Shown: positions 1,735-35,873 of the stretch, piece after piece
Layout of the letters: every line of letters begins with the position of its first letter
Position numbering within the stretch: position 1 is the first letter of the stretch
Source of the DNA: Eubacteriales bacterium
Lineage (GTDB): Bacteria; Bacillota; Clostridia; Oscillospirales; CAG-382
Direction of reading: 5' to 3'
DNA length: 64,000 bases
Assembly: GCA_045533335.1 (NCBI GenBank)
Contig: JAZSHQ010000021.1
Coordinates: 2,648-66,647 of the forward strand
The notes under the pieces: generated by a model
Databases searched by the model: none
What the model was told of the DNA's origin: nothing
The model's input: the letters and a program-made list of their open reading frames with translations, nothing else
Program-made: the position numbers and the translations under genes

Positions 1735-1823
1735 TGGCGCAGAGGGAGGGATTCGAACCCTCGTGTGGTTTCCCACAAACTGATTTCGAGTCAGCCCCGT
1801 TATGACCGCTTCGATACCTCTGC
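1735..1823 (-). tRNA. tRNA-Ser (anticodon CGA), class II, CCA encoded
   Basis: Read on the minus strand: acceptor GCAGAGG/CCTCTGC, anticodon loop CU-CGA-AA, long variable arm TTGTGGGAAACCACAC, T arm GAGGG-TTCGAAT-CCCTC, discriminator G plus CCA. Confidence 0.9.
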
Positions 1824-12746: not shown

Positions 12747-14342
12747 CTATAATTCTGTACGTTTTATTTCGTGCTCGTCGCCGACAAGACCGATCAACAG
12801 CCTGCGTATCTCGCCTTCATCAAAAAACCTTGCTCGCAGCACGACGGTATCGCCGACATAAAGCTTCTTTTCGCCGTCGTTGTCCATATCCTTGCGTTTT
12901 TCGTCGGCGCGGGTAATGCTTATAACCACCGAAGCCGAGGGCCACATAATATCGCGTACCGCCTTGCCGACAACAAAGGAATTGTGTGCCACCTTCATTT
13001 CGAAGCAGGCGATAACGGGTGTTTTGCCCGCATTTTGCGCGTGTTCCATATTTTCGAGCGCGTGGTCGTAAAAGGGCGTCTGGTTAAGCATTTCGGTTAT
13101 AAACGTAACCGCGAATATTACCAGCGCGACGAACAAAAGGTTTGAATATTGCCCCGTAAGCTCTATAAACAGCACAGACGAGGTAAGCGGAGCGCGCAGA
13201 GTGCCGCCGATAAAGGCGCACATACCCAAAAATACCGCTGTCGGGAAAAGTGATTCGTCCATTCCCATCGTCAAAAGCAATTTAGCAACGACCGCCGCAA
13301 ACGCCGCGCCTATTGCAAGCGTGGGTATAAATATACCGCCGGTAACGCCGCTGTCGGTAACAAAAAGCATCATAATAAGCCTTATCGCAAACAGCAACAG
13401 TAAAAACAGCACGGTTTTGTTGTTTATCATTACCTCTTCGATCGTGTGGTGACCGCTGTAAAGAGCATCGCCGAAGCTAAACGCCAATATACCGGTAATA
13501 ACGAAAATAAGCAAGAGTTTTATCGGTGCGGTGAGATATTTTTGTACTTTTTTAGTCAGCTTGCCGAAATAGGCGATAGACGAATCGAATATGCCCACGC
13601 CGATTGCGATAAGCGCGCCGAGCAAAAACAGATAGCCGATATGGGAAAGCTCGAATCCTTTAAGCGCGTCTATATGGAAAAGAGTTGCGCTTATGCCGAA
13701 CGCCGAGCAAAGAAGCTGGTTAACGTAGGTTGCCGAAACGACCGACATGGAAACCGTGAGCACGAGCATCGGAGTGAAACGCTTGTGTATCTCCTCAAGC
13801 GCGAAAAGTATGCCCGAAAGCGGTGCGCCCGTGGCAACGGCAAAGCCTGCACCCGCGCCGCCTGTCATAACGTATCTGTTCCAAGTAGATTTGTTTTTCG
13901 AAACTCTGCCGCACATCGCGCCGACAGACGTACCCATAAGCACGGCAGGACCTTCGCTGCCCAAGGGCAAACCGCAAAGAAAGCTTATCATACTTCCGAA
14001 GAAGGTAGAGAAAAGCGTTCTTAACCAGCGGAAATTAAGTACACCGCGCAGAACGCCTTCGCTTCGCGGGATACCGCCGCCCTTGCATTCGGGCGTTTTT
14101 TTGTGAAGCAGATACATAAGCATCGCCGCCACACAGAGCACCAAAAATGCAAGCGCGATATATAAAGGATTGCCTTTTGCCTGAGCGTACAAAAATCGGG
14201 ATATTTCTTCCGCCTTTTTCGCGGCTATTTTGAACAAAAATATAAGTGCGCCCGTGACCGCGCCGCAAAGCACGCCGTAGTACATACACGGAAAAACGTT
14301 TTGTATGTATTCTTTGTATTTGTAGTGTTTCATAAAAAACAC
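12747..14342 (-). CDS. ClC-family voltage-gated chloride channel / H+-Cl- antiporter with C-terminal TrkA-C-like domain
   Basis: Selectivity motifs GSEGP (LPLGSEGPAVLMG), GAGFAVATGAPLSG and GGIFIPTL. About 10 hydrophobic spans. The start could be the ATG at 14333 instead. Confidence 0.85.
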   Translation of the reverse strand: MFFMKHYKYKEYIQNVFPCMYYGVLCGAVTGALIFLFKIAAKKAEEISRFLYAQAKGNPLYIALAFLVLCVAAMLMYLLHKKTPECKGGGIPRSEGVLRGVLNFRWLRTLFSTFFGSMISFLCGLPLGSEGPAVLMGTSVGAMCGRVSKNKSTWNRYVMTGGAGAGFAVATGAPLSGILFALEEIHKRFTPMLVLTVSMSVVSATYVNQLLCSAFGISATLFHIDALKGFELSHIGYLFLLGALIAIGVGIFDSSIAYFGKLTKKVQKYLTAPIKLLLIFVITGILAFSFGDALYSGHHTIEEVMINNKTVLFLLLLFAIRLIMMLFVTDSGVTGGIFIPTLAIGAAFAAVVAKLLLTMGMDESLFPTAVFLGMCAFIGGTLRAPLTSSVLFIELTGQYSNLLFVALVIFAVTFITEMLNQTPFYDHALENMEHAQNAGKTPVIACFEMKVAHNSFVVGKAVRDIMWPSASVVISITRADEKRKDMDNDGEKKLYVGDTVVLRARFFDEGEIRRLLIGLVGDEHEIKRTEL

Positions 14343-14469
14343 CTTCTTCTTTGTTTTTTAATATCTGCATTATAAACCAAGTTTCGCGATTTGTCGATAT
14401 TTTTTGAATATTTTGTTTGAATTTGTTTGGGGGAAGAAAAAAAGACGGTGCAGACCGTCTTTTGATTTA

Positions 14470-15273
14470 TCACCCCAGCATAACGTCCAACAGCATCATA
14501 ACCGCAAATCCGCTAACTATTCCCATTGTTGCAAAATAGGGGTGCGCTTCTTGGTTTTTCTGACATTCGGGAATAAGTTCGTGCACAGCGACCAATATCA
14601 TCGCACCTGCGGCAAATGCGAGCGCGTAGGGCAACACCGTTTCGACGTAAACAACAAGCCACGCGCCGATAACGCCCGCTATCGGTTCAACCATACCCGA
14701 GGCCTGACCGTATAAAAAGCTCTTTTTCCGCGAAAACCCCTCACGCCGTAAGGGAACGGATACTGCAGCGCCCTCGGGGAAGTTTTGCAAGCCGATTCCC
14801 ATTGCAATGGTGATCGCGCCCATAAGATTTTCGGTGGAATATGCTCCGTTTTGGAGCGCGCCGAAAGCCACCCCGACTGCCAACCCTTCGGGAATATTGT
14901 GAAGCGTGATAGATAATATCAGCATTATAATTCTGCCGAAACGGGTATTTTCGTTTTGCGGCGTGTTGCTCACTCTGCGCTGTGTAAAGGTTACTATTTT
15001 GTCGCTCCCCCACATAAATAACGCCCCGAACAGAAACCCCGACGTCGCAACAAAATAAGCAGGCAGATTCGACGCAGATTCTGCGCGTTCTATGGCGGGC
15101 TGCAGCAGCGACCAAAAGCTTGCCGCAATCATTACGCCCGACGCGAATCCGAGCATAAGATTTAACGCTTTTGGGTTGGGGGATTTAAAAAAGACGACGG
15201 TCGCCGCACCCAATGCGGTCACAAACCACGTGCCGAGTGTCGCAATCAACGCCATTAATACAATATCGTCCAT
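14470..15273 (-). CDS. ZIP-family divalent metal (zinc) transporter, ZupT-like
   Basis: HNIPEGLAVGVAFG and LQNFPEGAAVSVPL motifs. Polytopic. A hairpin terminator (GACGGT..ACCGTC, about 14444-14459) follows. Confidence 0.8.
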   Translation of the reverse strand: MDDIVLMALIATLGTWFVTALGAATVVFFKSPNPKALNLMLGFASGVMIAASFWSLLQPAIERAESASNLPAYFVATSGFLFGALFMWGSDKIVTFTQRRVSNTPQNENTRFGRIIMLILSITLHNIPEGLAVGVAFGALQNGAYSTENLMGAITIAMGIGLQNFPEGAAVSVPLRREGFSRKKSFLYGQASGMVEPIAGVIGAWLVVYVETVLPYALAFAAGAMILVAVHELIPECQKNQEAHPYFATMGIVSGFAVMMLLDVMLG

Positions 15274-15374
15274 ATTGCACCTCCTATACCCATTATATTT
15301 TTTGTCGATATAAGTTGTGCAGTTTTTAATTTTGTCGGTAAAACAAAAAACGGCTCACGCCGTTTTAGTGTTTG

Positions 15375-15791
15375 CTATTTTTGCACGCGCAAATTCGGAG
15401 GAAGGATAACGTTTTGCTTTTCATCGTAAATAAACGCGCCGCATTCCGTGACATTTTCGAGAGTATCCAAAGAGTTTAAAAGCGATTCAAGCGTACCCTT
15501 GATAACCATAAAGCCTTGTCTGCCGGCGTTCATAAAATGTGCTTGGCAAAGCTTTGCGGAGGTGAATGCGGGATAAAAGGCATTGTCTATTTTTGGGTGA
15601 GTGATCAACCATAACCTCACCTTGCCCGAAGCGTCTTCGCCCGCAGGGGTGGAATAATACAACGGAAAGTCTGCATTGATATTCACAAAGTCCTGCTCGG
15701 TTATTTCCCCGTTCTTCGCCTGCTCCAACGTTTTATACCAAACTTCTTTGTTTTCGTCTTTTTTCTTCTTAAATATATCAAAAAGTCCCAT
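15375..15791 (-). CDS. Hypothetical protein (weak SseB-like resemblance)
   Basis: 138-aa ORF with a terminator hairpin (AACGGC-TCAC-GCCGTT) right after the stop. The AFTSAKLCQ region is only loosely SseB-like. Confidence 0.4.
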   Translation of the reverse strand: MGLFDIFKKKKDENKEVWYKTLEQAKNGEITEQDFVNINADFPLYYSTPAGEDASGKVRLWLITHPKIDNAFYPAFTSAKLCQAHFMNAGRQGFMVIKGTLESLLNSLDTLENVTECGAFIYDEKQNVILPPNLRVQK

Positions 15792-15871
15792 ATCTGTTCT
15801 CCGAAAATATTTTATGATTCATTGTACCATACAACGAAAAACTTGTCAATGTTTCCCTTGCATTCGAAGGA

Positions 15872-15925
15872 AAACAAAAAACGGCTCGCGCCGCTATAGT
15901 GTTTGTTATTTTTGAACGCGCAAAT
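15872..15925 (-). repeat. Orphan copy of the 3' end plus terminator of the 15375-15791 gene
   Basis: 15872-15925 aligns with 15341-15394 (terminator hairpin, stop codon and the last ~7 codons) with 7 mismatches by eye. No ORF is attached to the second copy. Confidence 0.6.
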
Positions 15926-15983
15926 CCCGTGTTCGTGCCCAATCGACCGCAGATTCAATCTTACGTAAAACGCAAAACAAAAA

Positions 15984-16000
15984 GACGGGCAACACCCGTC
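15984..16000 (-). terminator. Hairpin terminator 3' of tRNA-Pro
   Basis: GACGGG-CAACA-CCCGTC, followed on the minus strand by TTTTTGTTTT. Confidence 0.65.
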
Positions 16001-16009
16001 TTTTTGTTT

Positions 16010-16086
16010 TGGTCTGAGTGAGAGGATTTGAACCTCCGGCCTCTTGGTCCCGAACCAAGCGCTCTACCAAGCTGAGCCACACCCAG
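16010..16086 (-). tRNA. tRNA-Pro (anticodon CGG), CCA encoded
   Basis: Minus strand: acceptor CTGGGTG/CACTCAG, D arm GCTCAGCTTGGTAGAGC, anticodon arm CTTGG-TT-CGG-GA-CCAAG (G37), T arm GGAGG-TTCAAAT-CCTCT, A-CCA. Confidence 0.9.
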
Positions 16087-16120
16087 ATATTAAATTGTTA
16101 TTATTGATTGTCGCAAAACG

Positions 16121-16310
16121 CCAAGCGCTCTTCCTGTTGCGACTAAGGCTCTGTCTGCGTTCGCTTTTCCCTAAAAATGCACGCATTTTCAGGGGATCTA
16201 TATTCGTTGCTCACTTGCCAATCGCCAAGTCGCTGCCACTCGTTTTTGCTCGCTGTATCTGTCCCTGACAGCGCTCACAAAAACTCCCCAAGCTGAGCCA
16301 CACCCAGATA
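16121..16310 (-). pseudogene. Partial tRNA-Pro 5' copy (leader + nt 1-20 and nt ~22-32) split at the D-loop GG by a ~153-nt insert homologous to the tRNA-Ser insert
   Basis: 16288-16310 is 23/23 identical to 16067-16089. 16121-16134 is 13/14 identical to 16055-16068. The insert 16135-16287 is flanked by CC on both sides. The anticodon loop, T arm and 3' acceptor are missing. Confidence 0.8.
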
Positions 16311-16317
16311 CTCGGCT

Positions 16318-16346
16318 ATTATAACAAAACCGAGGTGCTTTGTCAA
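16318..16346 (-). promoter_or_regulatory. Consensus sigma-A-type promoter driving the split tRNA-Pro fragment and, by read-through, tRNA-Pro
   Basis: Minus strand reads TTGACA (16346-16341), a 17-nt spacer, TATAAT (16323-16318), then 7 nt, then the TAT leader and tRNA nt 1 at 16307. Confidence 0.7.
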
Positions 16347-16378
16347 TGCTTTTGTTTGAGAAAACACAAACCAAAATA

Positions 16379-16792
16379 TTATTTCCTATTTGAATCGAGG
16401 TAGGATTGCAAAATTATCTGCGCCGATAGGGCGTCGACGACATTTTTGCGCTTTTTGCCGTTAAAATCGGCGATATTCATATAGGTGTATGCCTCGACGG
16501 TAGATAACCGTTCGTCGACAAAAATCACCTCGAGCCCCGTTTCGGTGCCGATCATTTCGGCAAAGGCGCGCGATTTTTCGGCGCGGAAGGATTCGCTTCC
16601 GTCCATATTCTTCGGAAGCCCCAAAACTATCTTTGCGCCGTTAAGCTCTTTTATTTTCGCGGCGCATTTTTTGCAGGCATCGCGCATACCCGAAACGTTT
16701 ACCGTGCAAACCGTGCTTGCCAAAAATTCGGTTTCGTCGCTTACCGCGATACCGCAACGCGCGTCGCCGTAATCTATTCCTATAATTCTCAT
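16379..16792 (-). CDS. ruvX: Holliday-junction-resolvase-like YqgF/RuvX pre-16S rRNA nuclease
   Basis: MRIIGIDYGDARCGIAVSD N-terminus, ...GLPKNMDGSES..., ...VDERLST.... 137 aa, typical of YqgF. Confidence 0.85.
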   Translation of the reverse strand: MRIIGIDYGDARCGIAVSDETEFLASTVCTVNVSGMRDACKKCAAKIKELNGAKIVLGLPKNMDGSESFRAEKSRAFAEMIGTETGLEVIFVDERLSTVEAYTYMNIADFNGKKRKNVVDALSAQIILQSYLDSNRK

Positions 16793-16929
16793 AATCCCAT
16801 TCCTTTAAATCAGTTATTTTATTTTAAGATATTTTACAAAATTTGTCAACCGATATTACGTATTAAAAGCTTTGGCGCGGCAATAATAACATCGAACGAA
16901 AGAGATTCGTTCAGACAGGAGCATCAATT

Positions 16930-17154
16930 ATGGGAAAACGAAGAAAATACAGGTTTCCCAAAGGTATTAACGATGTAGATCGATATTATTATCCTCACCC
17001 TCTTGCGCCAAACTCAAATTATCCGACTAATCTCGTTACGGACCTATTCGGATTAAACAATATGGTACCCGAAATGAATACGGATGTTTTAGGCAGCTAT
17101 ACGGGAAGACCGTTCAATGATATTCGACCTATTCAGGATGCCGATGACCTGTAA
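16930..17154 (+). CDS. Small hypothetical protein
   Basis: 74-aa ORF with a GGAG-like RBS (caggagcatcaattATG). No motif recognised. Confidence 0.35.
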   Translation: MGKRRKYRFPKGINDVDRYYYPHPLAPNSNYPTNLVTDLFGLNNMVPEMNTDVLGSYTGRPFNDIRPIQDADDL

Positions 17155-17368
17155 TTAACGGAATCGCGAGATTCCAATAAGCGTTTCTGTATATAGGATT
17201 AAATAATTTTTTAACCTAAAACAGATTGCGACAGAATGTATAAAAGAACGACCGAAAGCGTTATATATTTAACGTTGCGGCAGTTTCCTTTAACCTCCTT
17301 CTGCCGCAAGGTCAAAAAGACATTCGCTTAACAAAAAAGTACCGTCGTATTAATTTACGACGGTATTT

Positions 17369-26346: not shown

Positions 26347-27648
26347 TTATTTAACCTCTTCGAAAAATTCTTTACCCTTTTTGCAAAGCGGGCAGGTGAA
26401 ATCATCTGGCATTTCGCCTTCGTGGATATATCCGCATATCTTGCAAACGTACTTTTTGCCGCCTGCGGCTTCCTGCTCGGGCAGAGTAACCGCAACGCCG
26501 CCGCAAAGCTCGTCGGCAAGCGCGTTTAACTGTTTTTCACTTTCTGCGTTAAGTGAAGACATAATTTTAACGTCGTTTTGTGCAAGGGTAAGGTTTTTGC
26601 TCTTTGCAAGCATTTCCTTCATCACCTTTGCGGCGAGCGGTGCCCAGCTTCCGTTTTCGATAAAGCCGACAAAGCGGTTTTGGAAGTTGCGCTCGGTAAG
26701 GTGGTTGATAAATTCCTTCATAAACGGGAAGACGTCTGCGTTGTAGGTCGTGGTTGCAAGCACGAGTTTGCTGTAACGGAACGCGTCTTCGACCGCCTCT
26801 GCCATATCACAGCGCGCAAGATCGTTTACCGCAACCTTCATACCCTTGCTTTCAAGAATTTCGGCAAGCTTCATTACCGCCTTTTTGGTGTTGCCGTAAA
26901 CAGAGGTGTAGGCGATAACCACGCCCTCTTCCTCGGGGCGGTAGCTCGACCAGATGTCGTAAAGATTGATGTAATAACCGAGATTTTCGTTAAGAATCGG
27001 GCCGTGAAGCGGGCAGATGATTGCGATGTCGAGCGTTGTTGCCTTTTTAAGCAGAGCCTGCACCTGCATTCCGTATTTGCCGACAATGCCGATATAATAG
27101 CGTCTTGCCTCGCACGCCCATTCCTCCTCGGCATCGAGCGCGCCGAATTTGCCGAATCCGTCGGCAGAAAAGAGTATTTTATCAAAGCTGTCGTAGGTAA
27201 CGATAACCTCCGGCCAATGCACCATAGGCGCGGTGACAAAGGTAAGCTCGTGTCTGCCGAGCGAAAGGGTACTGCCCTCGCCGACTACTATCTGCTTTTC
27301 GGCAAAATCGGTGCCGAAAAAGTTTTTCATCATCGCAAACGCCTTTGCAGACGAAACTATCTTCGCTTCGGGGTAGGCTTCTGCAAACACCGCGATATTC
27401 GCCGAATGGTCGGGCTCCATATGCTGTACCACAAGATAATCGGGCATTCTGCCGTCGAGCGCGTTTTTTATGTTTTCGAGCCATTCGCCGCCAAAACGCG
27501 CGTCTACCGTGTCCATAATTGCGATTTTTTCGTCGATTATCGCATAAGAATTGTAAGCCATTCCGTTGGGGACGATATACTGCCCCTCGAAAAGGTCGAT
27601 GCTTTTATCGTTTACTCCTATGTATTTAACGTCATTTGTGATATTCAT
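26347..27648 (-). CDS. Flavodiiron protein (FprA-type) with C-terminal rubredoxin domain
   Basis: Di-iron motif HMEPDHSAN, a flavodoxin-like VIAYTSVYGNTKKA, and a C-terminal KYVCKICGY...CPLCKKGK rubredoxin CxxC pair. Confidence 0.85.
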   Translation of the reverse strand: MNITNDVKYIGVNDKSIDLFEGQYIVPNGMAYNSYAIIDEKIAIMDTVDARFGGEWLENIKNALDGRMPDYLVVQHMEPDHSANIAVFAEAYPEAKIVSSAKAFAMMKNFFGTDFAEKQIVVGEGSTLSLGRHELTFVTAPMVHWPEVIVTYDSFDKILFSADGFGKFGALDAEEEWACEARRYYIGIVGKYGMQVQALLKKATTLDIAIICPLHGPILNENLGYYINLYDIWSSYRPEEEGVVIAYTSVYGNTKKAVMKLAEILESKGMKVAVNDLARCDMAEAVEDAFRYSKLVLATTTYNADVFPFMKEFINHLTERNFQNRFVGFIENGSWAPLAAKVMKEMLAKSKNLTLAQNDVKIMSSLNAESEKQLNALADELCGGVAVTLPEQEAAGGKKYVCKICGYIHEGEMPDDFTCPLCKKGKEFFEEVK

Positions 27649-27663
27649 AAGTTTTTACCTTTC

Positions 27664-28299
27664 TTACTGTTTTTTGCTGTGCTTGATAAAAGGGAAAATT
27701 TTTATTTTAAGCTTTTGCGGCTTTCCTTCGCAGATAAACAGCTTTGCCGTTACAATGCAGGCGATAAGGAGATAGCCGATATATATCGCCGCGTCGTGCT
27801 GGAATATCGGCATTATCAACGCCGCGAGAATAAAGCTTATCAGCGTTCGTGCGGAATTCGGGCTTATTTTTGCCATTATCGAAAACACGATAAAAATAAT
27901 ACCCAAAACCCTAACGCTTGTCAAGTCGGGGGTGAGCCCCAAAAGACTGCCGAAGGATACCGAAATGCCTTTTCCGCCCTTAAATTTGTGAAAAATAGGG
28001 AAACAATGTCCCAAAGCGGGTGCGGCAAGCACCGTAACGATGCCCCAAGGGGAGGTTGCGAAAAAGTGGCGGTATATAAATATCGGCAAAAAGCCTTTAA
28101 GAATATCGCAAGTAGCCGTGGCACAACCGCAGGCGATTCCGCCGTGCAGGAATGCGTTGTAGGCACCGGGGTTTTTATCGTCGCTTTGGCTTATTATGTC
28201 TTTTTTTGCAAAAAGCGAGCCGAAGTATTTCGCGAAAAGCAGGCTGCCGCAAAAATATCCGATTGTCGTAAAAATCAATGCCGAAATCAATCGACGCAC
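27664..28299 (-). CDS. plsY: Glycerol-3-phosphate acyltransferase PlsY
   Basis: GAYNAFLHGG and LGHCFPIFHKFKGGKGISVSFG motifs. The track ORF start (28410) overlaps the upstream gene, so a GTG at 28299 or TTG at 28290 (RBS GAAGGTG) is more plausible. Confidence 0.8.
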   Translation of the reverse strand: MRRLISALIFTTIGYFCGSLLFAKYFGSLFAKKDIISQSDDKNPGAYNAFLHGGIACGCATATCDILKGFLPIFIYRHFFATSPWGIVTVLAAPALGHCFPIFHKFKGGKGISVSFGSLLGLTPDLTSVRVLGIIFIVFSIMAKISPNSARTLISFILAALIMPIFQHDAAIYIGYLLIACIVTAKLFICEGKPQKLKIKIFPFIKHSKKQ

Positions 28300-28346
28300 C
28301 TTCTTTTCAAAACTTACGGGGCCGCCTTGCGGCAACCCCTTTAAGC

Positions 28347-29150
28347 TTAAATATTGTTTCTCCAGCTTTCGTCGCGTTCTATGCGCGATTGACGCGAGCG
28401 CATTTCGCATTCTATGCGGTGCTTGCTTCCGCGCGCAAAAAGGTTGACCTTGGTGTCTTCGCCAAAGGATTGCTGAAGAATATTTTCGACAGTTCCGTTC
28501 GAAAGGAAGCTGCAGGAAAAGATATCGATGTTTGCTATACGCTCCGCAATCGAATAGTGGAAGGCGATATGGCTTTGCGCCACCACTAACAGACCCGAAA
28601 TGTGTTCGGGGTTTTGGAGCTTGTCGTAGATTACGTAAGGGCGCGAGATCGCCTGCATATTGATGCGCGGTGCAACGTTATCGAGCCATTTGAAAATGCT
28701 TTCGAAATTCGCATCGATATTTTCTGCCGTTATCATATAGTGCGGGCCGAAATCGTTGCCGGTGTCGATATTACCGCTTATTCCTTCGAACACGCGGCGG
28801 TCGACGACGTTCGTGCTAATCGTGCTTGCGTAGATCTGGTTGCGGATAAGTGTCGTTACCTCGTCTTCGCTGAAGAATTGGTCGGTAAGTATATCGACAA
28901 AATAGCAGGAACGGTAGGGGAAGGTATGTATGGTAATGTGCGAGCCGTTGGCACAGATACAAAACGCGCTCACACCCACGTCCTCGGATTCCTTGCAGTA
29001 ATAGTAGGGAACGAGGAACGGAGGCATAACCGGTTTCATATTAAGGCTGTTCGACAGCTGTACCAACAGATCGTTTACGACCATAATGCTGTTGGATTGC
29101 TCTACAAAGCAACCGTAGGCATCCAACATATAGTGTCTGTTTGCAAGCAT
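28347..29150 (-). CDS. Tandem-duplicated S-adenosylmethionine-decarboxylase-like (pyruvoyl-enzyme fold) protein; last gene of the TIR operon
   Basis: Two modules follow the bacterial AdoMetDC pattern: NRHYMLDAYGC...GVSAFCICANGSHITIHTFPYRSCYFVDILTD and PHYMITAENID...ISGLLVVAQSHIAFHYSIAERIANIDIFSCS. Compare SpeD: GRHVISELWGC...[27 protein letters not shown]. Confidence 0.6.
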   Translation of the reverse strand: MLANRHYMLDAYGCFVEQSNSIMVVNDLLVQLSNSLNMKPVMPPFLVPYYYCKESEDVGVSAFCICANGSHITIHTFPYRSCYFVDILTDQFFSEDEVTTLIRNQIYASTISTNVVDRRVFEGISGNIDTGNDFGPHYMITAENIDANFESIFKWLDNVAPRINMQAISRPYVIYDKLQNPEHISGLLVVAQSHIAFHYSIAERIANIDIFSCSFLSNGTVENILQQSFGEDTKVNLFARGSKHRIECEMRSRQSRIERDESWRNNI

Positions 29151-29159
29151 TTTGCTCTC

Positions 29160-31415
29160 CTAATCTACGAATATCTCGTTGAAATCCTTGAAGTTGATAA
29201 GCACGGGATCTATCCACCATGTGTTGCTTGTGCGAAGCACGTTCGGCAGACAGTAGAAAACGTTGCTCAGGTTATATGAAAATTCCGAAAGCACCTTTAT
29301 TTCTTTCGCTTCGGGGTTGGCGTCGCCGTCTAAATCGTAGTTTAGCGAGAAGGTTACCGTTTTATAGCCGTCGTAGTTTTCGTTGCCGCTGTTGCAGGTC
29401 GCGGTGTAGGGATATATCGCACGCGAGGGGTTGTCGTTGCTCAATTCAAATGTACCGTTTCTTAAATATTCAAGAATATGGAACGCGAAGCTTATCCATT
29501 CGTTGACGTTGCTTTCGTTAAGCGCTTTTAAGCTCTTGGCATATCCGAGAGTGTATTTCTTGAATTCTGCGGTGTTTAAAAGCTCGTATTTTCCGATGGC
29601 AGAATAGAGCGCACGGCGTGCGCTTTCCGATGAATTCGAGCCCGAACCGCACATTTCGCAAAGCTCGATAAAACGGTGCATAAGCGAAATCATATCTTCG
29701 AAATTGCTTGCGTTGAATTCTTTAAGCGTATCCGCTTCTTCCTTTGCGGCAGAAAGGAAACGCTCGTGCAGAGCCTTTTGGTCCTTTGCAATATCTGCTT
29801 CCGAAAGGCAGGAAAGACTCGATTTTACGTCAAATTCCGACTTTCTTTCACCGTACGCAAGAAGCCCCTTGTAGAAGCATATTATATGGCGGAAGGTTTC
29901 GCTTAAGATTATGCAGACATATTTTGCACGTTGCTCGGGTGTCATAGAGGTCTTCATTTTTTCGAGCAGCGCCATATTGTCGTAGATATTACCCGCACAA
30001 ATCGATTTTTCAACGGTTTCCTCTTCGTGCACCGCCGAAAGCGACGAAATTATCAGCATTGCCATCGCTCTTGCGCGCAAACGCTTGTTGTTTGCGTTCG
30101 GCACCTTGCCGAAACCGCTCGCTTCGCCGAATATCAGCTTTTCCTTTATTATTCGGTCGATTTCCTGCATAAGCTCGCGCTTGTTGCGTCCGCGGATATA
30201 CATTTTGGGGTTATCTATGCGCTTGCAAAGGTTGCGCGCGATGTCGACAAAGTTCTTTTCGTTCAAGAACAAAACCTCAAGCACGCTCGAGGGGCTGTAC
30301 TCGATAAGAAGCATAACGATTATGCTGTCCCAGTCAAGCTTTTGCGATTCTATATTTTCGCTTGGATTCGATTCGCCGAAGATGTCGTCGCCTTCGCGTT
30401 TGTAAAAAGCATCGTAAAGCGCCGCCTTCGAGCCGATGTTTATGTCGATGGTATCGGATATCGCCAAAGCGAGATTTTTAATGTATTTGTAGTTAATCGT
30501 GTGGACCTGATGTATCAGGTTGTTTTTTTTTGATTCCGGTTCATTTTCCTCGGACCACGGAACGAGTGCGATTTCCGAATACACTTCTTCGGGAACGCGG
30601 TTTATGGTGTTTTCGTCTTCGGAATCGGATTCGAATACCGTGAAGCTGACGGTTTGCGAGTTCTTTTCGCAGATATACTTCAGTTCGAGCTTATGACCGT
30701 TTTCGCTTTCGCTTTTTTCTATACTGAAGAGCGAGAACATATCGAGATAACGGTCCTCGTTGAAATAAAGAAGATACATTGCGGGGATATAGCGGTAATC
30801 CTCGGATTCGCGCGGGTTTTTGGAAACGAACACGAAATTGCCGTCTTCGTCCTGGACCAGATCGTAATCCTGCAGAAATGCTATGTTTTCGAGCAGATCG
30901 AGGAACATCGCCGAAAGTTCGAGCGTATCCATATTAAAGCGCGCGGGCGCGACACGCCATTCTGCGATGAGCTTGAAATACTTGATCAGCGTGAAATCAC
31001 GGGAGCCGAAGGAGGAGAGCCTTTTGAAAATATCGTAAAGTTCGCTGTCCTCGTCCTGAAGCATTTCGAACTGAATATCGGTAAGCACGAACTGCACTAG
31101 CTCGGGAGTTACCGGATATTGCGAATAGGCCTTTTTTAAGCTGTTTATAATGCGAAGCGAGCTTTGCGACGAAACGTTTTCGCTTATCGATTCGCCGCTG
31201 TTTATATCGCATTTAAGACTTCCGTATGCAAAAATGAACGAAAGCGTGAGAATGTTATTTATAAAAACTACGTAAGAGGAGGATTTGCAGTATTTTTTAA
31301 CGTTCGTTCCGCCCAATATAAAGTTTTTCATATTGTCGCAGACCTTGTCGTTGAAAAATTCCAAAATACTGTTTCGGGTGGCTTCCTCCAAAGATTTTTT
31401 GGAACGCTCGTCCAT
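29160..31415 (-). CDS. 751-aa orphan protein (no recognisable motif); fourth gene of the TIR operon
   Basis: Long uninterrupted ORF. AGGAGG RBS 7 nt upstream. 18-nt gap from the ATPase gene and 9-nt gap to the next gene. No P-loop, nuclease or HEPN motif found by eye. Confidence 0.75.
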   Translation of the reverse strand: MDERSKKSLEEATRNSILEFFNDKVCDNMKNFILGGTNVKKYCKSSSYVVFINNILTLSFIFAYGSLKCDINSGESISENVSSQSSLRIINSLKKAYSQYPVTPELVQFVLTDIQFEMLQDEDSELYDIFKRLSSFGSRDFTLIKYFKLIAEWRVAPARFNMDTLELSAMFLDLLENIAFLQDYDLVQDEDGNFVFVSKNPRESEDYRYIPAMYLLYFNEDRYLDMFSLFSIEKSESENGHKLELKYICEKNSQTVSFTVFESDSEDENTINRVPEEVYSEIALVPWSEENEPESKKNNLIHQVHTINYKYIKNLALAISDTIDINIGSKAALYDAFYKREGDDIFGESNPSENIESQKLDWDSIIVMLLIEYSPSSVLEVLFLNEKNFVDIARNLCKRIDNPKMYIRGRNKRELMQEIDRIIKEKLIFGEASGFGKVPNANNKRLRARAMAMLIISSLSAVHEEETVEKSICAGNIYDNMALLEKMKTSMTPEQRAKYVCIILSETFRHIICFYKGLLAYGERKSEFDVKSSLSCLSEADIAKDQKALHERFLSAAKEEADTLKEFNASNFEDMISLMHRFIELCEMCGSGSNSSESARRALYSAIGKYELLNTAEFKKYTLGYAKSLKALNESNVNEWISFAFHILEYLRNGTFELSNDNPSRAIYPYTATCNSGNENYDGYKTVTFSLNYDLDGDANPEAKEIKVLSEFSYNLSNVFYCLPNVLRTSNTWWIDPVLINFKDFNEIFVD

Positions 31416-31433
31416 AATGACGCCTCCTGATAA

Positions 31434-32366
31434 CTAATCGATTTCTACCTCGTCGATGATTCTTGCCAGCTTTTTGTATCTTTCAAGAGCTACCTTTTCG
31501 TCATCCATAAGCTTGTCTTTGTCGATAGCGAAGAGCTGGTCCTCCTGCCACATAAAGCGGTCTACTGCTGGAATGCCGAATTCTTCACGGTCAAGCATAT
31601 CAAGAATATAGTTGTGACGGAGATCGTCACCGCCGAAAGAAGATTCAAAGTTATTGTTGATCTTATCTACCGCAAATCCGGGGTACTGAACTCCGTTTAT
31701 TGTGGTGCTGTACTTCGGGATAACGTTAGGTACGAAGATAACGGTCTTTTCTTCGCCGATGCTCTTATCGCCGTCTTCGACAGCGGTAAAGAAACGGCGG
31801 GTACCGTTAACGAACTGAATGGTGGGACGCATACAGCATACCACGACGTTTGCCGCGTAGTTGGAAATATTCGCGGTCGCGGTGTTACCCACGGAGGAGT
31901 CGAGAACTATTGCCGGAACGTCGAAACGGCGTTCGCAAACGTTAATAAAGCTGTTCAGCTTTTCGAAGAAGGAATTGTTTGTATCGGAATAGTTGGATTT
32001 TGCATCCTTATCGATATTCTTGTTATCCTTTGCAGGAAGCAGAAGAATAGCTTCGTTTATACCGTAGCCGAACGCATTGCCCACGGGGATAAGCTGACCG
32101 AGGAAGGGGTGGTCGGAAATCGAATCGTAGTTTTTGGTATCGATTCCGTTGTGAAGAAGATACTGAAGGCAGTTTGTGTCGGTAACCTTGTCCTCTGCGC
32201 GGAGAAGATAAGACATACCGCAGCTGTCTACGTCGGTATCGACGACGATCATAGGACTTTCGGCAGTCGGTTTGATATGGTTGGCTGCCAAAAGGGGAAT
32301 AACGTTATATGCGAGCGTGCTTCTGCCCGCGCCGCCTTTATACGAAAAGAAGGATATTACTTTCAT
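31434..32366 (-). CDS. ParA/MinD-superfamily ATPase with variant Walker A (KGGAGR)
   Basis: MKVISFFSYKGGAGRSTLAYNV (deviant Walker A, with Arg where the P-loop Lys normally sits), MIVVDTDVDSCGMSYLL, and a Walker-B-like PAIVLDSSVGNT. AGGAGAAA RBS. Confidence 0.7.
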   Translation of the reverse strand: MKVISFFSYKGGAGRSTLAYNVIPLLAANHIKPTAESPMIVVDTDVDSCGMSYLLRAEDKVTDTNCLQYLLHNGIDTKNYDSISDHPFLGQLIPVGNAFGYGINEAILLLPAKDNKNIDKDAKSNYSDTNNSFFEKLNSFINVCERRFDVPAIVLDSSVGNTATANISNYAANVVVCCMRPTIQFVNGTRRFFTAVEDGDKSIGEEKTVIFVPNVIPKYSTTINGVQYPGFAVDKINNNFESSFGGDDLRHNYILDMLDREEFGIPAVDRFMWQEDQLFAIDKDKLMDDEKVALERYKKLARIIDEVEID

Positions 32367-32392
32367 TTCTTGCGTTTCTCCTGACTGTAATA

Positions 32393-34597
32393 TTATTCAA
32401 ACAGCGAGCTTTCGTGATCGCCGGAGTTCTTGATGCGTGCGATATAGTTGCCGACAAGAAGCCGTACGTCTTTTCTGATATAGCCTTGGAAGCGTTCGAG
32501 CTCTTTTTTGTTTTCCTCGAAGGATGCCTTTGAGGATTTCGATGCGGAATACACCCTATCGCTGAGAAGCGACATAACGAATGCACCCATCGCGGTTTCG
32601 AAAGCCTTGCTCGATTCGTTAAGCTCTTCTGCGCCCATAACCGATGCTGTGATGTTTTCGGCAACCGATGCGATAAAGCCGCTGATAAGCTCGGGGAACA
32701 TATACTTAATTTCGCGCTTCAGAATGTCTACAACAGCATCCTCGACAGGTCTTTCAACGTGATCAAGCTGGTTTTGCAACTCGATATTTTTGTTTTGAAG
32801 CTTTTCGATTTCTTTTTCCTTGTCATCGATAACCTGATTAAGCTTGCCGATAGCGCCGTCGGGAAGTTCGTCCTGACGTTTTTGCTCGGCAAGGATCGCT
32901 TCACGCTGGGATTTGTTTTTGTTGTAGTTTTCTATATATTCGCTTTCGTATCTTTCGTAATAGAAATAGAATTCTCCCAAAGCGGAAATATAGTAATAGT
33001 TACTGCAACTGAAGAAGCCGTCCTTTTCCCATATCCACTTGACCGAAGTGCCTTTTTCGTAACGGTTTTCAAGGATATAGCCAAGGTATTTACGCATATT
33101 GTGCTGGGGATATTTAATAAGATATTCGCTTATCGCGTTGTTGGTACGTATAAGCAGCGGCATAAGCGAGAACACACGCATACGGCGCTTTCTGAGCTCT
33201 TTTATAATAACCTTGTGGCGGGTGAATCTTTCGTTGAAACCGATAAGGAACTGATCAACGATATAGTCCTTGCCGTCGTTTTTAAGCTTTTCATAGGTAC
33301 GGAACGCCTTTTGTACCGCGAGCTGGCAGGAGTCGAGCATATCGTTATACTCGCGCAGTGCCTTTTCAAGCTGTTCCTCGTCGGTTGCAAATGCGCGCTG
33401 AACATCGAGATCTTCGTCCACACCGGCATCGAGCATAATGTTTATCATATACACCGTGTTGAACAGTGCGTCGGACGTGGTCGCCATCGAGATATCATCT
33501 TCGGTGAGGGTGGTATGAAGGTCGTTGTAATAAAATGCATCTGCGAGCTTATCCTTGGAAAGACGCCATATTTCGTGCGCAACCGCTTTGCAGTTTTCTT
33601 CCAAAAGACCGTATTCGCCGCTTATTTTGTCGATTCCGCCGTTTATTTCGATAAAGCGGAGCCTTAATTCGTTGTAGGGGTCGTATTTAGATGTTTGGCG
33701 AGATTCGCTATCGACAACAGCTTCGCTTTCGCCGCTTGTCGCCGCGTTTATTTCCTCGTATTCCTCGAGATGCTTTTGATATTCTTCTTGGAGTGTCTTA
33801 AAGGTATCGGTGGTGGTGTTATAGCGCTCGCAATTACGTTCTTCCTTGAGATAGTTCAAATATTCTTCGAAGGTTTTGAACATTTCCACAAGACATTCGC
33901 AAACCGTAAAGGTGTAGTAAAGAGAGGGCTCTTCACAGCCCTTGGTGAAGTTCCAGCCGATTTCAAGCTTTTTAGATTCACCGCGCTCGCTTTCACCTTC
34001 GATAAAGCTGTCGTTAATATAACGCATACCGTAGGATATTGCGGCAACCAGCCTTTCCTGGCGTCTGCATTTTTCACGTATGCTTGCGTGGTATTTAAGT
34101 ATCTGCAAAAAGCAGGATACAACCCAGGTAATAGCTTCTATGTTGGAGATTTCAACGTTGAAATGAGCGGTTTCGTAAGGCGAAGCGTCGAAAACGTATT
34201 CGTCGGGATTTTCCGTTTCGATTCTTGCAAGGACGTCGTCCATAACGATGTCCATTATTTCACGAATGGTGAGGTTTTTCTTGTCCTTTAATATTTCGTC
34301 ATCGTCGAAATCGAGTTTGAAGGACGAAGCTAAAAGCATAAGTGCCTGAAGCGAGTGGCACTGCGAAAGCAGACCTACCGCGCGGGTATCGTCCATAAAA
34401 AAGCCGATATCGCCTTTTTTGGGATCGCTGTTAAAGCGCGAATAAAGCTCTTCAAATATTTTTTTGCCGATCTTGATCTTTGATCTGTACTGATAGAAAA
34501 CCTGCGAATCGTCGTTTTTCGAGGCGAAGTCGACGATATCTGCAAGGTTACCGTATCGTGCGCGTCTGTCGATTGTAGAAGTAGTGTGATCTGCCAT
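32393..34597 (-). CDS. 734-aa orphan protein, predicted mostly helical with C-terminal coiled coil; second gene of the TIR operon
   Basis: Long ORF 12 nt downstream of the TIR gene stop. Heptad-like KEKEIEKLQNKNIELQNQLD and an acidic linker EEINAATSGESEAVVDSESRQ. No catalytic motif recognised. Confidence 0.75.
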   Translation of the reverse strand: MADHTTSTIDRRARYGNLADIVDFASKNDDSQVFYQYRSKIKIGKKIFEELYSRFNSDPKKGDIGFFMDDTRAVGLLSQCHSLQALMLLASSFKLDFDDDEILKDKKNLTIREIMDIVMDDVLARIETENPDEYVFDASPYETAHFNVEISNIEAITWVVSCFLQILKYHASIREKCRRQERLVAAISYGMRYINDSFIEGESERGESKKLEIGWNFTKGCEEPSLYYTFTVCECLVEMFKTFEEYLNYLKEERNCERYNTTTDTFKTLQEEYQKHLEEYEEINAATSGESEAVVDSESRQTSKYDPYNELRLRFIEINGGIDKISGEYGLLEENCKAVAHEIWRLSKDKLADAFYYNDLHTTLTEDDISMATTSDALFNTVYMINIMLDAGVDEDLDVQRAFATDEEQLEKALREYNDMLDSCQLAVQKAFRTYEKLKNDGKDYIVDQFLIGFNERFTRHKVIIKELRKRRMRVFSLMPLLIRTNNAISEYLIKYPQHNMRKYLGYILENRYEKGTSVKWIWEKDGFFSCSNYYYISALGEFYFYYERYESEYIENYNKNKSQREAILAEQKRQDELPDGAIGKLNQVIDDKEKEIEKLQNKNIELQNQLDHVERPVEDAVVDILKREIKYMFPELISGFIASVAENITASVMGAEELNESSKAFETAMGAFVMSLLSDRVYSASKSSKASFEENKKELERFQGYIRKDVRLLVGNYIARIKNSGDHESSLFE

Positions 34598-34609
34598 TTC
34601 GTTCTCCGA

Positions 34610-35764
34610 TTAATTATTTTTTATTTTTAAAAAATCTTCTTTGTGTATTTCTATTACGGGGCGTACGCCCGATTTTGCGGCTCGGGAATTGTAGCCGCTT
34701 TTATAAACCGTGCCGTTTTTTCTTATTACCTTTTGCAGTGCGCCCATAGCCATATCGGCAATCCACCAATGCGATTCGGTATCGTCAGGGAAGGCGAATG
34801 CTTCTTCGGACGTGTTGCTGCATTTTTGCATATCCTCGCAGGAAAGCAATCTTATTTTACGTATGCAGGCGCGTTCGTTTTCGGTAAAAGCAAGCTCGGA
34901 AAATCCGGTTTCCAGCCATTTGTTAAGCTCTTTTCCGCCGCAACGCGTGTCCACCGCGCATTCCGAAAGAAGAACGTAAACGTCGTTTTCCAAATAAAGG
35001 AAACGCCATTCGATGCTTTTTGTCGAATACCCCTTGCCGTCCTGAACGATAAACCTTTCGCCGTGTTCGGTAAAGGTCTGGTCTGCTTGCAGGCGGTAAG
35101 AAGGAATTGAAGTTTCGGGCCTGTCTTTGCATATACCGAGCGAAAGTATCGTGCCTTCTTCCTCGCTGACCCGCGCTTCTATCTTTTTCATTTGCAGATA
35201 ATCGGTGTCGATCGCTTCGGGTATTTTGCTTTTAACGGCAAGTGCAAGATTTTCTATACATTCTTCGGTGTTTCTGTAATCGGCGAATATCACGTTGTCG
35301 CTGAAAAGCGAGGTGATGACCGCGAGATTTTCAAGCGGGAAGTTTTTGGCAAGCGTTCTTTCATCCGCTTCGAGAGAATCGAACGCTTTTTTTATAATCA
35401 TAAGATTAGATTCTCCGTCGGCGTGGGCGGGGAAGATGTAAAACGGTCTGCCGCGCTCTTTTTCGGCTTGGAACTTTTCTAGCGTCCAACGGCGTTCCTT
35501 GTGTACGGCGTCCGCCAAAAACGCCTGAACGTTATTGAAGAAAATTACGCCTCGGCAGTTTTCGTGCTTGATAAGCGATTCGGCTTCTTCGGTCCATCTG
35601 TCGCCGTTTACAAAATCCACGTCGTACCATACGCGCACACCCTTTTCGAGAAGTCCCGTAAAGACGGTTTGCAGTATTTCCGCTTCTTTGTCGCGTGCGT
35701 GCTTATAGCTTATGAACAGAAAATCCTTATCTGTTATTTCTTGCTTCGTATAGTGCTCGCCCAT
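34610..35764 (-). CDS. TIR-domain protein fused to a C-terminal W-R-x-L / WW / GVRP module (DUF6273-like); first gene of the operon
   Basis: N-terminus: DFLFISYKHARDKE..LLEKGVRVWYD..NGDRW..RGVIFFNN..AVHKE (TIR beta-A/alpha-A, W-x-D and Glu pattern). C-terminus: IEWRFLYLENDVYVLLSE...HWWIADM...SGVRPVIEI. Confidence 0.7.
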   Translation of the reverse strand: MGEHYTKQEITDKDFLFISYKHARDKEAEILQTVFTGLLEKGVRVWYDVDFVNGDRWTEEAESLIKHENCRGVIFFNNVQAFLADAVHKERRWTLEKFQAEKERGRPFYIFPAHADGESNLMIIKKAFDSLEADERTLAKNFPLENLAVITSLFSDNVIFADYRNTEECIENLALAVKSKIPEAIDTDYLQMKKIEARVSEEEGTILSLGICKDRPETSIPSYRLQADQTFTEHGERFIVQDGKGYSTKSIEWRFLYLENDVYVLLSECAVDTRCGGKELNKWLETGFSELAFTENERACIRKIRLLSCEDMQKCSNTSEEAFAFPDDTESHWWIADMAMGALQKVIRKNGTVYKSGYNSRAAKSGVRPVIEIHKEDFLKIKNN

Positions 35765-35844
35765 AGCTGCATCCTTCCGAAAAATGAATGGAATTTTGTG
35801 ATATCCGTGAAATAATTCGCCAAAAATATTTACAATTATTTAAT

Positions 35845-35873
35845 ATTATACAATATATGCGCTTTTTAGTCAA
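35845..35873 (-). promoter_or_regulatory. Near-consensus sigma-A promoter of the TIR operon
   Basis: Minus strand: TTGACT (35873-35868), 17-nt spacer, TATAAT (35850-35845). About 80 nt upstream of the ATG at 35764, and directly after the galT terminator. Confidence 0.65.

Follow-up and report, generated by a model that had tools for sequence, protein, structure and literature searches.

A five-gene operon of gut Clostridia with TIR, ParA-like and SpeD-like proteins: a candidate undescribed modular conflict system built on a three-protein core with exchangeable partners

Type II Thoeris employs a histidine-ADP-ribose (His-ADPR) messenger, and it is typical of immune systems that end modules are swapped while the core stays fixed. 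Thoeris, TIR-SAVED CBASS and SPARTA share with the operon described here a TIR_2-type domain with a conserved Glu, a small operon and a patchy distribution. MinD/ParA-like domains that are predicted to be inactive have been noted among the conflict systems of bacteria (Kaur et al. 2020, PMC7159879), tandem fusions of SpeD, the S-adenosylmethionine decarboxylase (AdoMetDC), are known from polyamine operons (Li, Liang, Phillips & Michael 2023, PMC10407285), and DUF6273 has been modelled as a C-type-lectin-like domain, which in some receptor-binding proteins of phages binds the ligand and is hypermutated (PMC10743442). Here we analyse an operon of five genes, g1 to g5, at positions 28347-35764 (minus strand) of a 64,000-nucleotide stretch of contig JAZSHQ010000021.1 from an uncultured Eubacteriales bacterium, this whole stretch being called the window below. 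The operon resembles each of these systems in part, and we hold with moderate confidence that it represents an undescribed modular conflict system, probably directed against phages or mobile elements and probably of the abortive-infection type, its role in defence being one that we infer. The genes and expression signals, with positions in the window, are as follows.

g1, 34610-35764, minus strand: 384 residues, TIR domain and DUF6273-like module
g2 (core protein G2), 32393-34597, minus strand: 734 residues, predicted toroid-like domain and coiled coil
g3 (core protein G3), 31434-32366, minus strand: 310 residues, ParA/MinD-fold P-loop protein
g4 (core protein G4), 29160-31415, minus strand: 751 residues, orphan with a conserved C-terminal beta domain
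g5, 28347-29150, minus strand: 267 residues, tandem SpeD/AdoMetDC-fold pseudo-dimer
Promoter, 35845-35873, minus strand: sigma-70 type, TTGACT, 17 nucleotides (nt), TATAAT, about 80 nt 5' of the g1 ATG, 11 of 12 consensus positions
Weak terminator-like GC hairpin, 28318-28339, minus strand: 9-bp stem with 7 GC pairs and a poor T-run, located after the stop of g5 and before the start of plsY

A preliminary description, made from the letters of the window, had read the locus as five packed minus-strand open reading frames (ORFs), with GGAG-type ribosome-binding sites (RBSs) at three internal junctions, and lengths, gaps and RBSs were all confirmed. The intergenic spacing is exactly 12, 26, 18 and 9 nt (g1-g2, g2-g3, g3-g4 and g4-g5), and all five genes start with ATG behind a GGAG-type RBS (the set being GGAAGGA, CGGAGAA, AGGAGAA, AGGAGG and AGGAGAG). 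The promoter that it had called directly after the galT terminator hairpin is likewise present, and ranks best among the 15 promoter-like sites of the region. At the other end, the GC hairpin is indeed all that follows the last stop, being the sole terminator-like site 3' of g5, and since it is weak, with its poor T-run, transcription may read through into plsY. As had been proposed, the five genes are a single transcription unit and operon, and the base composition of the region matches its surroundings (G+C 0.44-0.49). As for plsY itself, with its start at 28410 the longest ORF (27664-28410, minus strand) would share 64 nt with the 3' end of g5; the homology of plsY to the two closely related loci L006 and L007 reaches only from about 28290 downwards, so that its true start is probably downstream of the hairpin. 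A plus-strand ORF of 588 residues (26578-28344), antisense to fprA and plsY, is almost certainly spurious.

To compare the operon with named systems, the hidden Markov models (HMMs) of PADLOC-DB v2 (2023) were run on all five proteins and on nine distant relatives of G3; g2, g4 and g5 gave no match, and g1 and g3 gave weak partial ones only, that of g1 being confined to its N-terminus (SAVED_TIR, 1.4e-4, residues 8-74). Membership in Thoeris was rejected, as Pfam, NCBIfam and PADLOC detect no ThsA-type effector (SIR2, Macro/SLOG, transmembrane) in g2-g5, and so was membership in CBASS, Pycsar or SPARTA, as PADLOC and Pfam detect no CD-NTase, pyrimidine cyclase or short Argonaute in the five proteins. 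In contrast to Thoeris, CBASS and SPARTA, the operon thus has no ThsA, CD-NTase, SAVED receptor or Argonaute; in addition, its TIR domain is fused to a lectin-like, DUF6273-like domain, and three of the proteins linked to it are without relatives in any of those systems. The NTP-dependent conflict systems of multicellular bacteria (Kaur, Burroughs, Iyer & Aravind 2020, PMC7159879) and the NCBIfam family NF047398, 'KGGVGR-motif variant AAA ATPase', come close in that an altered-P-loop ParA/MinD domain lies beside TIR and effector-type enzymes. Here, however, the ParA-like protein is a stand-alone, universal core subunit and not a domain in effector position, there is no vWA, MoxR, VMAP or STAND component, and the NF047398 score is below its cut-off. 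Conflict systems of the vWA-MoxR type, in turn, do not have the core of the operon. Protein B of the PADLOC candidate PDC-M28 is the best PADLOC match of g3 (4.4e-9) and of all nine distant G3 relatives, but the match is partial (profile positions 130-318 of 438, 33.9 bits for g3; 17-36 bits overall) and covers mostly the P-loop, and no match to PDC-M28A was found. This is a remote P-loop resemblance, not membership.

Two large surveys from the Aravind laboratory make no mention of such partners, and no description of the cassette or its core was found in the literature searched, which does not fully exclude an earlier description elsewhere. The PADLOC models and the literature thus agree with the initial impression that no named system has this partner set. 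The cassette appears to be new at the level of the system, with g1, g3 and g5 assigned by their sequences to known superfamilies (TIR, ParA/MinD-like and SpeD-fold). Cassette and core were found only in uncultured organisms known from metagenomes of gut, rumen and other sources, and this, together with the absence from plasmid, phage and viral collections, may explain why they are missing from the catalogues and the literature searched.

The five genes are a real and strictly co-inherited unit. In a scan of 185,579 species, each represented by one genome, the five-gene cassette was found at 42 loci, which span at least five Clostridia families and belong to Eubacteriales, Oscillospiraceae, Acutalibacteraceae, Christensenellaceae, Faecousia and one Lachnospiraceae metagenome-assembled genome (MAG), from human and animal guts. 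Gene order is identical in all 47 fetched loci (genome loci plus further contigs with g4 homologues) wherever the contig reaches, two of them ending at a contig edge inside the cassette, without g1. Identity to the window's proteins falls as low as 23-25% for g1 and 42% for g5, and the nearest fetched locus, from an 'Eubacteriales bacterium' MAG, has 95-99% protein identity. Start and stop codons of cassette genes frequently overlap across related loci, which suggests translational coupling. Purifying selection acts on all five genes, with ratios of nonsynonymous to synonymous substitution rates (dN/dS) of 0.014-0.24; against L007 the values are 0.235 for g1, 0.118 for g2, 0.052 for g3, 0.093 for g4 and 0.045 for g5. 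As such, g1 evolves fastest, at about five times the rate of g3 (the ATPase) and g5 (the decarboxylase), which are the slowest, g5 being the best conserved of all.

No flanking gene is conserved across the 43 non-redundant cassette loci. The annotated flanks are housekeeping genes (dnaK-dnaJ-htpG and an FGGY kinase; an aminotransferase and a transketolase; PHP and MFS proteins; a HAD protein and a sigma factor), and only L006 and L007 share the context of the window, with glgB-mntP-galT on one side of the cassette and plsY-fprA-ecfS-coaX on the other. The idea, put forward for testing, that the five genes travel together in unrelated genomes is borne out by the constant order in 47 loci and by the differing flanks. 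The further suggestion that the operon was horizontally acquired finds indirect support only: the flanks do differ between lineages, but there is no compositional anomaly, and neither mobility genes nor plasmid or phage copies were found.

Some individual loci depart from this pattern. In the sole Lachnospiraceae locus the TIR gene (L039:3699-4883) has an in-frame stop in the ORF call and may be a pseudogene or may have been given a wrong start. The divergent type I locus L005 carries two extra unannotated ORFs of 825 and 716 residues directly upstream of the TIR gene (L005:512-5485), neither with a Pfam match, and a MACPF-domain protein of 959 residues directly downstream of the decarboxylase (L005:13105-15984). 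About 20 nt upstream of the TIR gene, L019 encodes a CxxCxxCC-type protein of about 174 residues (L019:5216-5740), with equivalents in L024, L026, L027 and L028; the identity of this family rests on an HMM built from the CxxCxxCC proteins of the metagenome loci, among which two have a match to Pfam PF03692. No CxxCxxCC protein is encoded in the window.

The unit that recurs most widely is not the whole cassette but its centre. When metagenome contigs were scanned with distant G3 relatives, the 80 returned loci searched with HMMs of the five proteins, and the neighbours typed by gene maps, clustering and Pfam/NCBIfam scans (23 representative metagenome loci were mapped in detail), G2-G3-G4 emerged as a conserved core across loci with a G+C of 0.29-0.63, well beyond Clostridia. 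Its partners fall into five architectures, given here in gene order.

Type I: CxxCxxCC protein (in some loci), TIR-DUF6273, G2, G3, G4, tandem SpeD; the type of the window and of all Clostridia genome loci, as well as of three loci from metagenomes
Type II: radical-SAM/SPASM enzyme, G2, G3, G4, TIR; about 17 loci
Type III: PRMT-like methyltransferase (PRMT_C 1e-19, PrmA-like), G2, G3, G4, CxxCxxCC protein
Type IV: agmatine-deiminase-like enzyme (PAD_porph 5e-87; aguA 292 bits against a cut-off of 382), G2, G3, G4, tandem SpeD
Type IV, second form: G2, G3, G4, CxxCxxCC protein, tandem SpeD
Type V: G2, long G3, protein of about 900 residues with an internal TIR, CxxCxxCC protein, pyridoxal-phosphate (PLP) Orn/Lys/Arg decarboxylase (OKR_DC_1 6e-72)

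The window's five genes are therefore this core plus two end modules, and both ends are exchangeable. The five-gene unit of the preliminary description stands as a cassette, whereas the natural unit is wider. TIR occurs in three of the five architectures, and 13 of the 23 representative metagenome loci have a CxxCxxCC protein after G4 or after the TIR fusion. The radical-SAM enzyme of type II has its best matches among peptide maturases (such as PapB and SCIFF maturases) and an anaerobic sulfatase maturase, and the TIR protein of about 900 residues in type V ends in the C-terminal domain of G4. One type IV locus, L063, has a separate TIR protein (5771-6898) upstream of the agmatine-deiminase-like gene and, downstream, a TPR protein of 820 residues (13189-15651) and a TIR-BspA-type LRR protein of 530 residues (15664-17256); its G4 has only 256 residues and is truncated or split.

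Among the core proteins, g3 matches AAA_31, MipZ and phrog_164, a 'ParA-like partition protein' (2.9e-6), and covers 188 of the 190 profile positions of NCBIfam NF047398 AAA_KGGVGR (3e-17, 63.6 bits, cut-off 90). Its Walker A motif is deviant, S-Y-K10-G-G-A-G-R15-S-T (nt 32316-32345): the signature Lys K10 is kept throughout, and the canonical P-loop Lys is Arg15 in 42 of 42 orthologues and in 13 of 13 distant relatives. The assignment as a KGGxGR ParA-like protein holds, the motif being invariant in the orthologues, and all 13 sampled distant relatives retain KGG[AST]GR[ST] and the C-terminal F-K-W-x-E motif. In g3 there are, in addition, a D43xDxDS switch, D155 (Walker B) and the C-terminal F-x-W-x-E. 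The family is small: HMMER, run exhaustively over 1.84 billion cluster representatives, returned only 239 G3 relatives. A split of G3 into two ORFs in the metagenome loci L102:6788-7458 and L066:626-1549 may reflect a frameshift, a pseudogene or a sequencing error.

The ParA/MinD fold, the signature Lys and the phrog_164 match of g3, together with the presence of a coiled-coil partner protein, would also be expected of a ParA-type module that segregates or positions a plasmid, the chromosome or a cellular cargo. We regard such a function as extremely improbable, given that every member has Arg where the P-loop Lys would stand, that the scores against the equivalog models are very low (ParA_partition 19.7 against 180 bits; minD_bact 14.1 against 212.9 bits), that no ParB, centromere-like repeat or plasmid context accompanies the genes, and that G3 is always linked to TIR or to metabolic enzymes.

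The two end modules of the window are g1 and g5. In g1, Pfam TIR_2 (PF13676), whose cut-off is 28, reaches 32.1 bits over residues 17-113 (the domain, ~17-113, corresponds to nt 35426-35716), and it matches all 38 of the 38 g1 orthologues, the best at 7.2e-16, which sustains the TIR assignment made earlier. The 38 sequences all keep S19, Y20, W46, D48, W57, C70 and G72, together with E90, the putative catalytic Glu beyond the beta-D/alpha-C region, and the closest solved relatives are bacterial NAD+ hydrolases of the AbTir type (E 1.7e-4 to 1e-3). Invariant E90 and these relatives lead us to predict that g1 is an enzymatic TIR of the NADase type.

A variable middle region separates the TIR domain from a C-terminal module (residues ~246-384, nt 34613-35029) with invariant W334, R368 and P369 and the pattern I-x-W..L ... 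WW ... G-V-R-P aligned across the orthologues. This is the module that had been noticed by its W-R-x-L...WW...GVRP pattern, and a DUF6273 search had been proposed for the five proteins. Pfam DUF6273 (PF19789) matches 14 of the 38 orthologues at E<=0.1 (best 2.1e-5), but the window protein itself has no Pfam match at E<=1. The module would be akin to the DUF6273 'tentaclins' among the C-type-lectin domains targeted by diversity-generating retroelements (DGRs; PMC10743442), and, with such a module attached to an immune-type effector domain, g1 may also resemble the hypermutated putative antigen sensors of conflict systems (PMC10907252). In contrast to the DGR systems, the window contains no reverse transcriptase and no template/variable repeat pair, and the variation among g1 orthologues is ordinary divergence (dN/dS 0.08-0.24). 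DGR-driven hypermutation of the module was rejected because the window has no such repeat pair and the dN/dS values are below 0.25.

At the other end, the two tandem AdoMetDC-fold modules proposed for g5 are supported by Pfam AdoMet_dc (PF02675), which matches in two stretches (E=2.7e-22, 79.6 bits against a cut-off of 25); phrog_3125 matches at 1.3e-21. Of its two halves, the N-terminal one (residues 1-125, nt 28776-29150) has degenerated: at S70, 27 of 44 sequences have Ser, 15 have Gly and 2 have Ala, so that this Ser is unconserved, and Asp, not Cys, stands at +20, with H-T-F-P kept. In the C-terminal half (residues 133-267, nt 28350-28754), A-Q-S193-H, H198 (+5) and C213 (+20) are invariant in 44 sequences, with a spacing identical to that of S63, H68 and C83 in the T. 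maritima enzyme, which Li et al. 2023 (PMC10407285) identify as indispensable both to self-processing and to catalysis. Because only the C-terminal half keeps the Ser/His/Cys triad, we take g5 to be a pseudo-dimer in which one pyruvoyl site is predicted, at codon 28572-28574. Both serines of the SH motifs had been put forward as candidates for mutation; S193 is invariant, and S70 varies between Ser, Gly and Ala. The published SpeD1-SpeD2 fusions (PMC10407285) likewise hold two class-1b AdoMetDC-fold modules in a chain of about 270 residues, but have two processing serines and combine an active N-terminal AdoMetDC with an adjacent speE. The arrangement in g5 is the reverse, the C-terminal module being conserved and the N-terminal one degenerate, and g5 has one conserved Ser, with Gln before it, and always G4 as neighbour, never speE.

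The Pro of H-T-W-P-E is fully conserved in true AdoMetDCs and not in the arginine decarboxylases derived from them (PMC10407285). In g5 it is missing from the C-terminal site (H-Y-S-I) and retained in the dead N-terminal module (H-T-F-P), and in this the predicted active module resembles the SpeD-derived arginine decarboxylases. We take a basic amino acid of the Arg or Orn type, rather than S-adenosylmethionine (SAM), to be the probable substrate, because the conserved site is without the diagnostic Pro, because type V fills the equivalent position with a non-homologous PLP Orn/Lys/Arg decarboxylase, and because type IV pairs the tandem SpeD with an agmatine-deiminase-like enzyme. Agmatine deimination is the step that follows arginine decarboxylation. 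SAM, which had been named as a possible substrate, is probably not used, as the diagnostic Pro is absent and the sister systems employ Orn/Lys/Arg-type partners. An ornithine-decarboxylase (SpeDC) subtype was rejected, the published motif I-E-T-S-L-x-S-G-H-F being unlike A-Q-S-H-I-A-F-H-Y, and the sequence allows g5 to be called only 'not a bona fide AdoMetDC'.

The AdoMet_dc match, the NCBI label of the g5 orthologues as S-adenosylmethionine decarboxylase and the occurrence of tandem SpeD fusions in polyamine operons might be taken to mean that g5 is an ordinary polyamine SAM decarboxylase that merely adjoins unrelated genes. This we consider very unlikely: every locus has g5 linked to the other four, its score against the SpeD equivalog TIGR03330 (58.5 bits) is below the cut-off of 75.65, and no speE adjoins it in the window or in the annotated loci. 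Moreover, the half with the Pro is without Ser and Cys, and the one with Ser, His and Cys is without the Pro.

The pairing of TIR with a decarboxylase, in two independent and non-homologous forms (pyruvoyl in type I, PLP in type V), raises the possibility of a signalling route, in which an amine made by the decarboxylase, e.g. agmatine, would be joined to ADP-ribose (ADPR) by TIR base exchange and the resulting ADPR-amine messenger, comparable to the His-ADPR of type II Thoeris, would switch on G2-G3-G4 as the effector. The invariant catalytic Glu of the TIR domain would agree with this, as would the standing of g5 as the most conserved gene, which is expected for a fixed small-molecule substrate. 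However, type II loci have TIR but no decarboxylase, in type IV loci the decarboxylase has no TIR linked to it, and no SLOG, Macro, SAVED or CARF receptor domain was detected in G2, G3 or G4; we consider the route unlikely.

The other two core proteins, which had been described as large orphans, remain so at the sequence level. For g2, sequence-profile searches return no family. Its confident AlphaFold2 (AF2) model (predicted local distance difference test, pLDDT, 83.9; predicted template-modelling score, pTM, 0.73) suggests an (alpha/alpha)6-toroid-like domain at residues ~40-530, followed by a long coiled coil of about 190 residues (~532-724). The earlier picture of a helical orphan with a coiled coil is thus kept as regards the orphan and the coiled coil and revised as regards the helical part, for which a toroid is predicted. 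Foldseek against the PDB relates the g2 model to GH76, AGE-type/cellobiose-2-epimerase, YihS, GH8, GH88/105 and GH125 barrels, and a hairpin motif, G-W-x-F...P-S-L-Y at 214-227, is conserved across the wider family.

For g4, 114 homologues were found among 5.8 billion sequence clusters, all of them unnamed or 'hypothetical' and the few labelled ones from Clostridia MAGs; no family was found by sequence, and a profile search against PDB sequences was empty. The AF2 model, which is confident (pLDDT 80.9, pTM 0.76), is helical in its N-terminal and central parts, with a beta sheet inserted at ~184-260, and has its C-terminal beta domain at ~663-751 (nt 29163-29429); Foldseek against the PDB and BFVD returned nothing at E<0.2. 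The C-terminal domain holds the best-conserved motifs (I-Y-P, Y-Y-C-L-P and W-W-I-D-P) and is common to the type V TIR-fusion proteins (hhalign probability 89%, E=2e-6). Two ideas about these proteins were discarded. That g2 and g4 are paralogues is contradicted by an hhalign probability of 0.1%. The idea of formylglycine formation, with the g4 motif Y-C-L-P-N..R as target of an anSME-like radical-SAM enzyme or of an FGE-like lectin domain, was dropped because the types linked to radical SAM, and others, have Ala, Val, Tyr or Gly in place of the Cys of the motif.

On the reading of the operon as a conflict system, G2-G3-G4 would constitute a nucleotide-bound sensor or scaffold. The ParA-like G3 would bind ATP and dimerise, and the Arg in its P-loop might render hydrolysis slow or abolish it, so that the protein would behave as a switch and not as a motor. 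The putative lectin-like DUF6273 domain of g1 could bind the trigger or dock on the core, and the TIR domain, once activated, would cleave NAD+ by means of the invariant Glu90. A second metabolic effector might be provided by g5, which would cleave itself between Q192 and S193 to yield one pyruvoyl cofactor and would decarboxylate an amino acid of the Arg or Orn type, not SAM. Acting together, g1 and g5 might collapse or rewire the pools of NAD+ and of arginine and polyamines that an invader needs. The immune-like interpretation is suggested by the combination of a fixed core with exchangeable enzymatic end modules, by the repeated recruitment of TIR, by the fusion of the fastest-evolving protein, g1, to a recognition-type domain, and by the very sparse distribution of both the cassette (42 loci) and G3 (239 relatives).

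Several observations weigh against a role in immunity. The cassette is not located in defence islands, the inspected neighbours being housekeeping genes: among the 146 nearest neighbour genes of all types, no PADLOC family occurs in more than two, the matches being generic HTH, CorA or GHKL domains, and the settings in defence islands that the preliminary description had suggested looking for were not seen. No copy of the cassette was found in IMG/VR, INPHARED or PLSDB with g4, g3 and distant G3 relatives as queries, and no integrases or mobility genes are present at the region; mobility is inferred only because the flanks differ between lineages. The type III variants, with a PRMT-like enzyme, the core and a CxxCxxCC protein, have no recognised toxic effector. 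In g5, the conserved site A-Q-S-H-I-A-F-H-Y-S-I has Gln, and not the usual Glu, before the Ser, so that self-processing stays a prediction. The proposed (alpha/alpha)6 toroid of g2 has modest Foldseek scores behind it (E ~2e-3; the best at E=2.2e-3, probability 1.0 and TM(target) 0.56, within a range of E 2e-3 to 0.2 and TM(target) 0.3-0.57). Finally, an arginine decarboxylase and an agmatine-deiminase-like enzyme would resemble two consecutive biosynthetic steps, those of the known agmatine route, and the radical-SAM/SPASM enzyme and the methylases would also fit a pathway of protein or peptide modification.

The last of these points, like the housekeeping neighbourhoods without enrichment in defence genes, would be in keeping with a non-immune pathway on a ParA-like/coiled-coil scaffold, which makes or attaches an arginine-derived amine or modifies a protein. 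The variable partners would then be biosynthetic or maturation enzymes, the (alpha/alpha)6 protein another enzyme, and NAD+ a co-substrate of the TIR domain rather than its target. All variable partners do carry out chemistry on basic amino acids or protein residues, and many aromatic and polar residues are invariant in G2, as in an enzyme. Against this stand the TIR domains, which occur fused to or near recognition-type domains (DUF6273; in L063, TIR-LRR and TPR) and in g1 belong to the fastest-evolving protein, the patchiness of the distribution, the partner swaps at both ends of the fixed core, and the lack of any conserved precursor peptide, transporter or further pathway gene beside the cassette. 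On balance such a pathway seems to us somewhat unlikely, and we continue to favour a conflict system.

Outside the operon, the window holds a few further features. A minus-strand ORF of 2348 residues (3102-10148), in a stretch with a G+C of 0.50-0.54 compared with about 0.46 nearby, has a GH94 catalytic domain (3.3e-82), a GH94 supersandwich and a 'glycoamylase' domain, and resembles a giant protein of the cyclic beta-1,2-glucan synthase/phosphorylase type. A 42-nt direct repeat, 88% identical, lies at 1806-1847 and 2000-2041, one copy overlapping the 5' end of tRNA-Ser CGA (1735-1823, minus strand), and could be an integration scar or a duplicated promoter region. A terminator-like element (AAAACAAAAAACGGCTCACGCCGTTTTAG...) is present in two 55-nt copies with 91% identity, at 15340-15394 and 15871-15925, which are 531 nt apart and adjoin tRNA-Pro (16010-16086, minus strand).

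If the operon is an immune system, it would add new core machinery, with two of the three core proteins belonging to no family and one having no recognisable fold, and new effector chemistry, namely the decarboxylation, deimination or methylation of basic amino acids beside the cleavage of NAD+. In addition, the cassette links a lectin-like, DUF6273-like domain to a TIR effector, and offers a testable function for the puzzling 'dead' ParA-like proteins with KGGxGR as well as a function for a tandem SpeD enzyme whose active module is opposite to that of the published fusions. Should it instead represent a metabolic or modification pathway, it would still be an uncharacterised, widely spread gene cluster with unusual enzymology. 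More tentatively, the cassette might be the gut-Clostridia branch of a large and so far unrecognised immune superfamily, in which a three-protein core (the (alpha/alpha)6-coiled-coil protein, the ParA-like switch with Arg in its P-loop and an orphan of new fold) would be combined with interchangeable effectors that attack or rewire basic-amino-acid and polyamine chemistry as well as NAD+, possibly including an ADP-ribosyl-amine signal made by TIR. Beside TIR, these effectors would be the pyruvoyl or PLP decarboxylase, the agmatine-deiminase-like enzyme, the PRMT-like and CxxCxxCC proteins and the radical-SAM/SPASM enzyme. This is a conceivable though doubtful extension of our data; if true, the manipulation of arginine and polyamines would be a bacterial antiviral strategy, in parallel to the depletion of polyamines in animal innate immunity.

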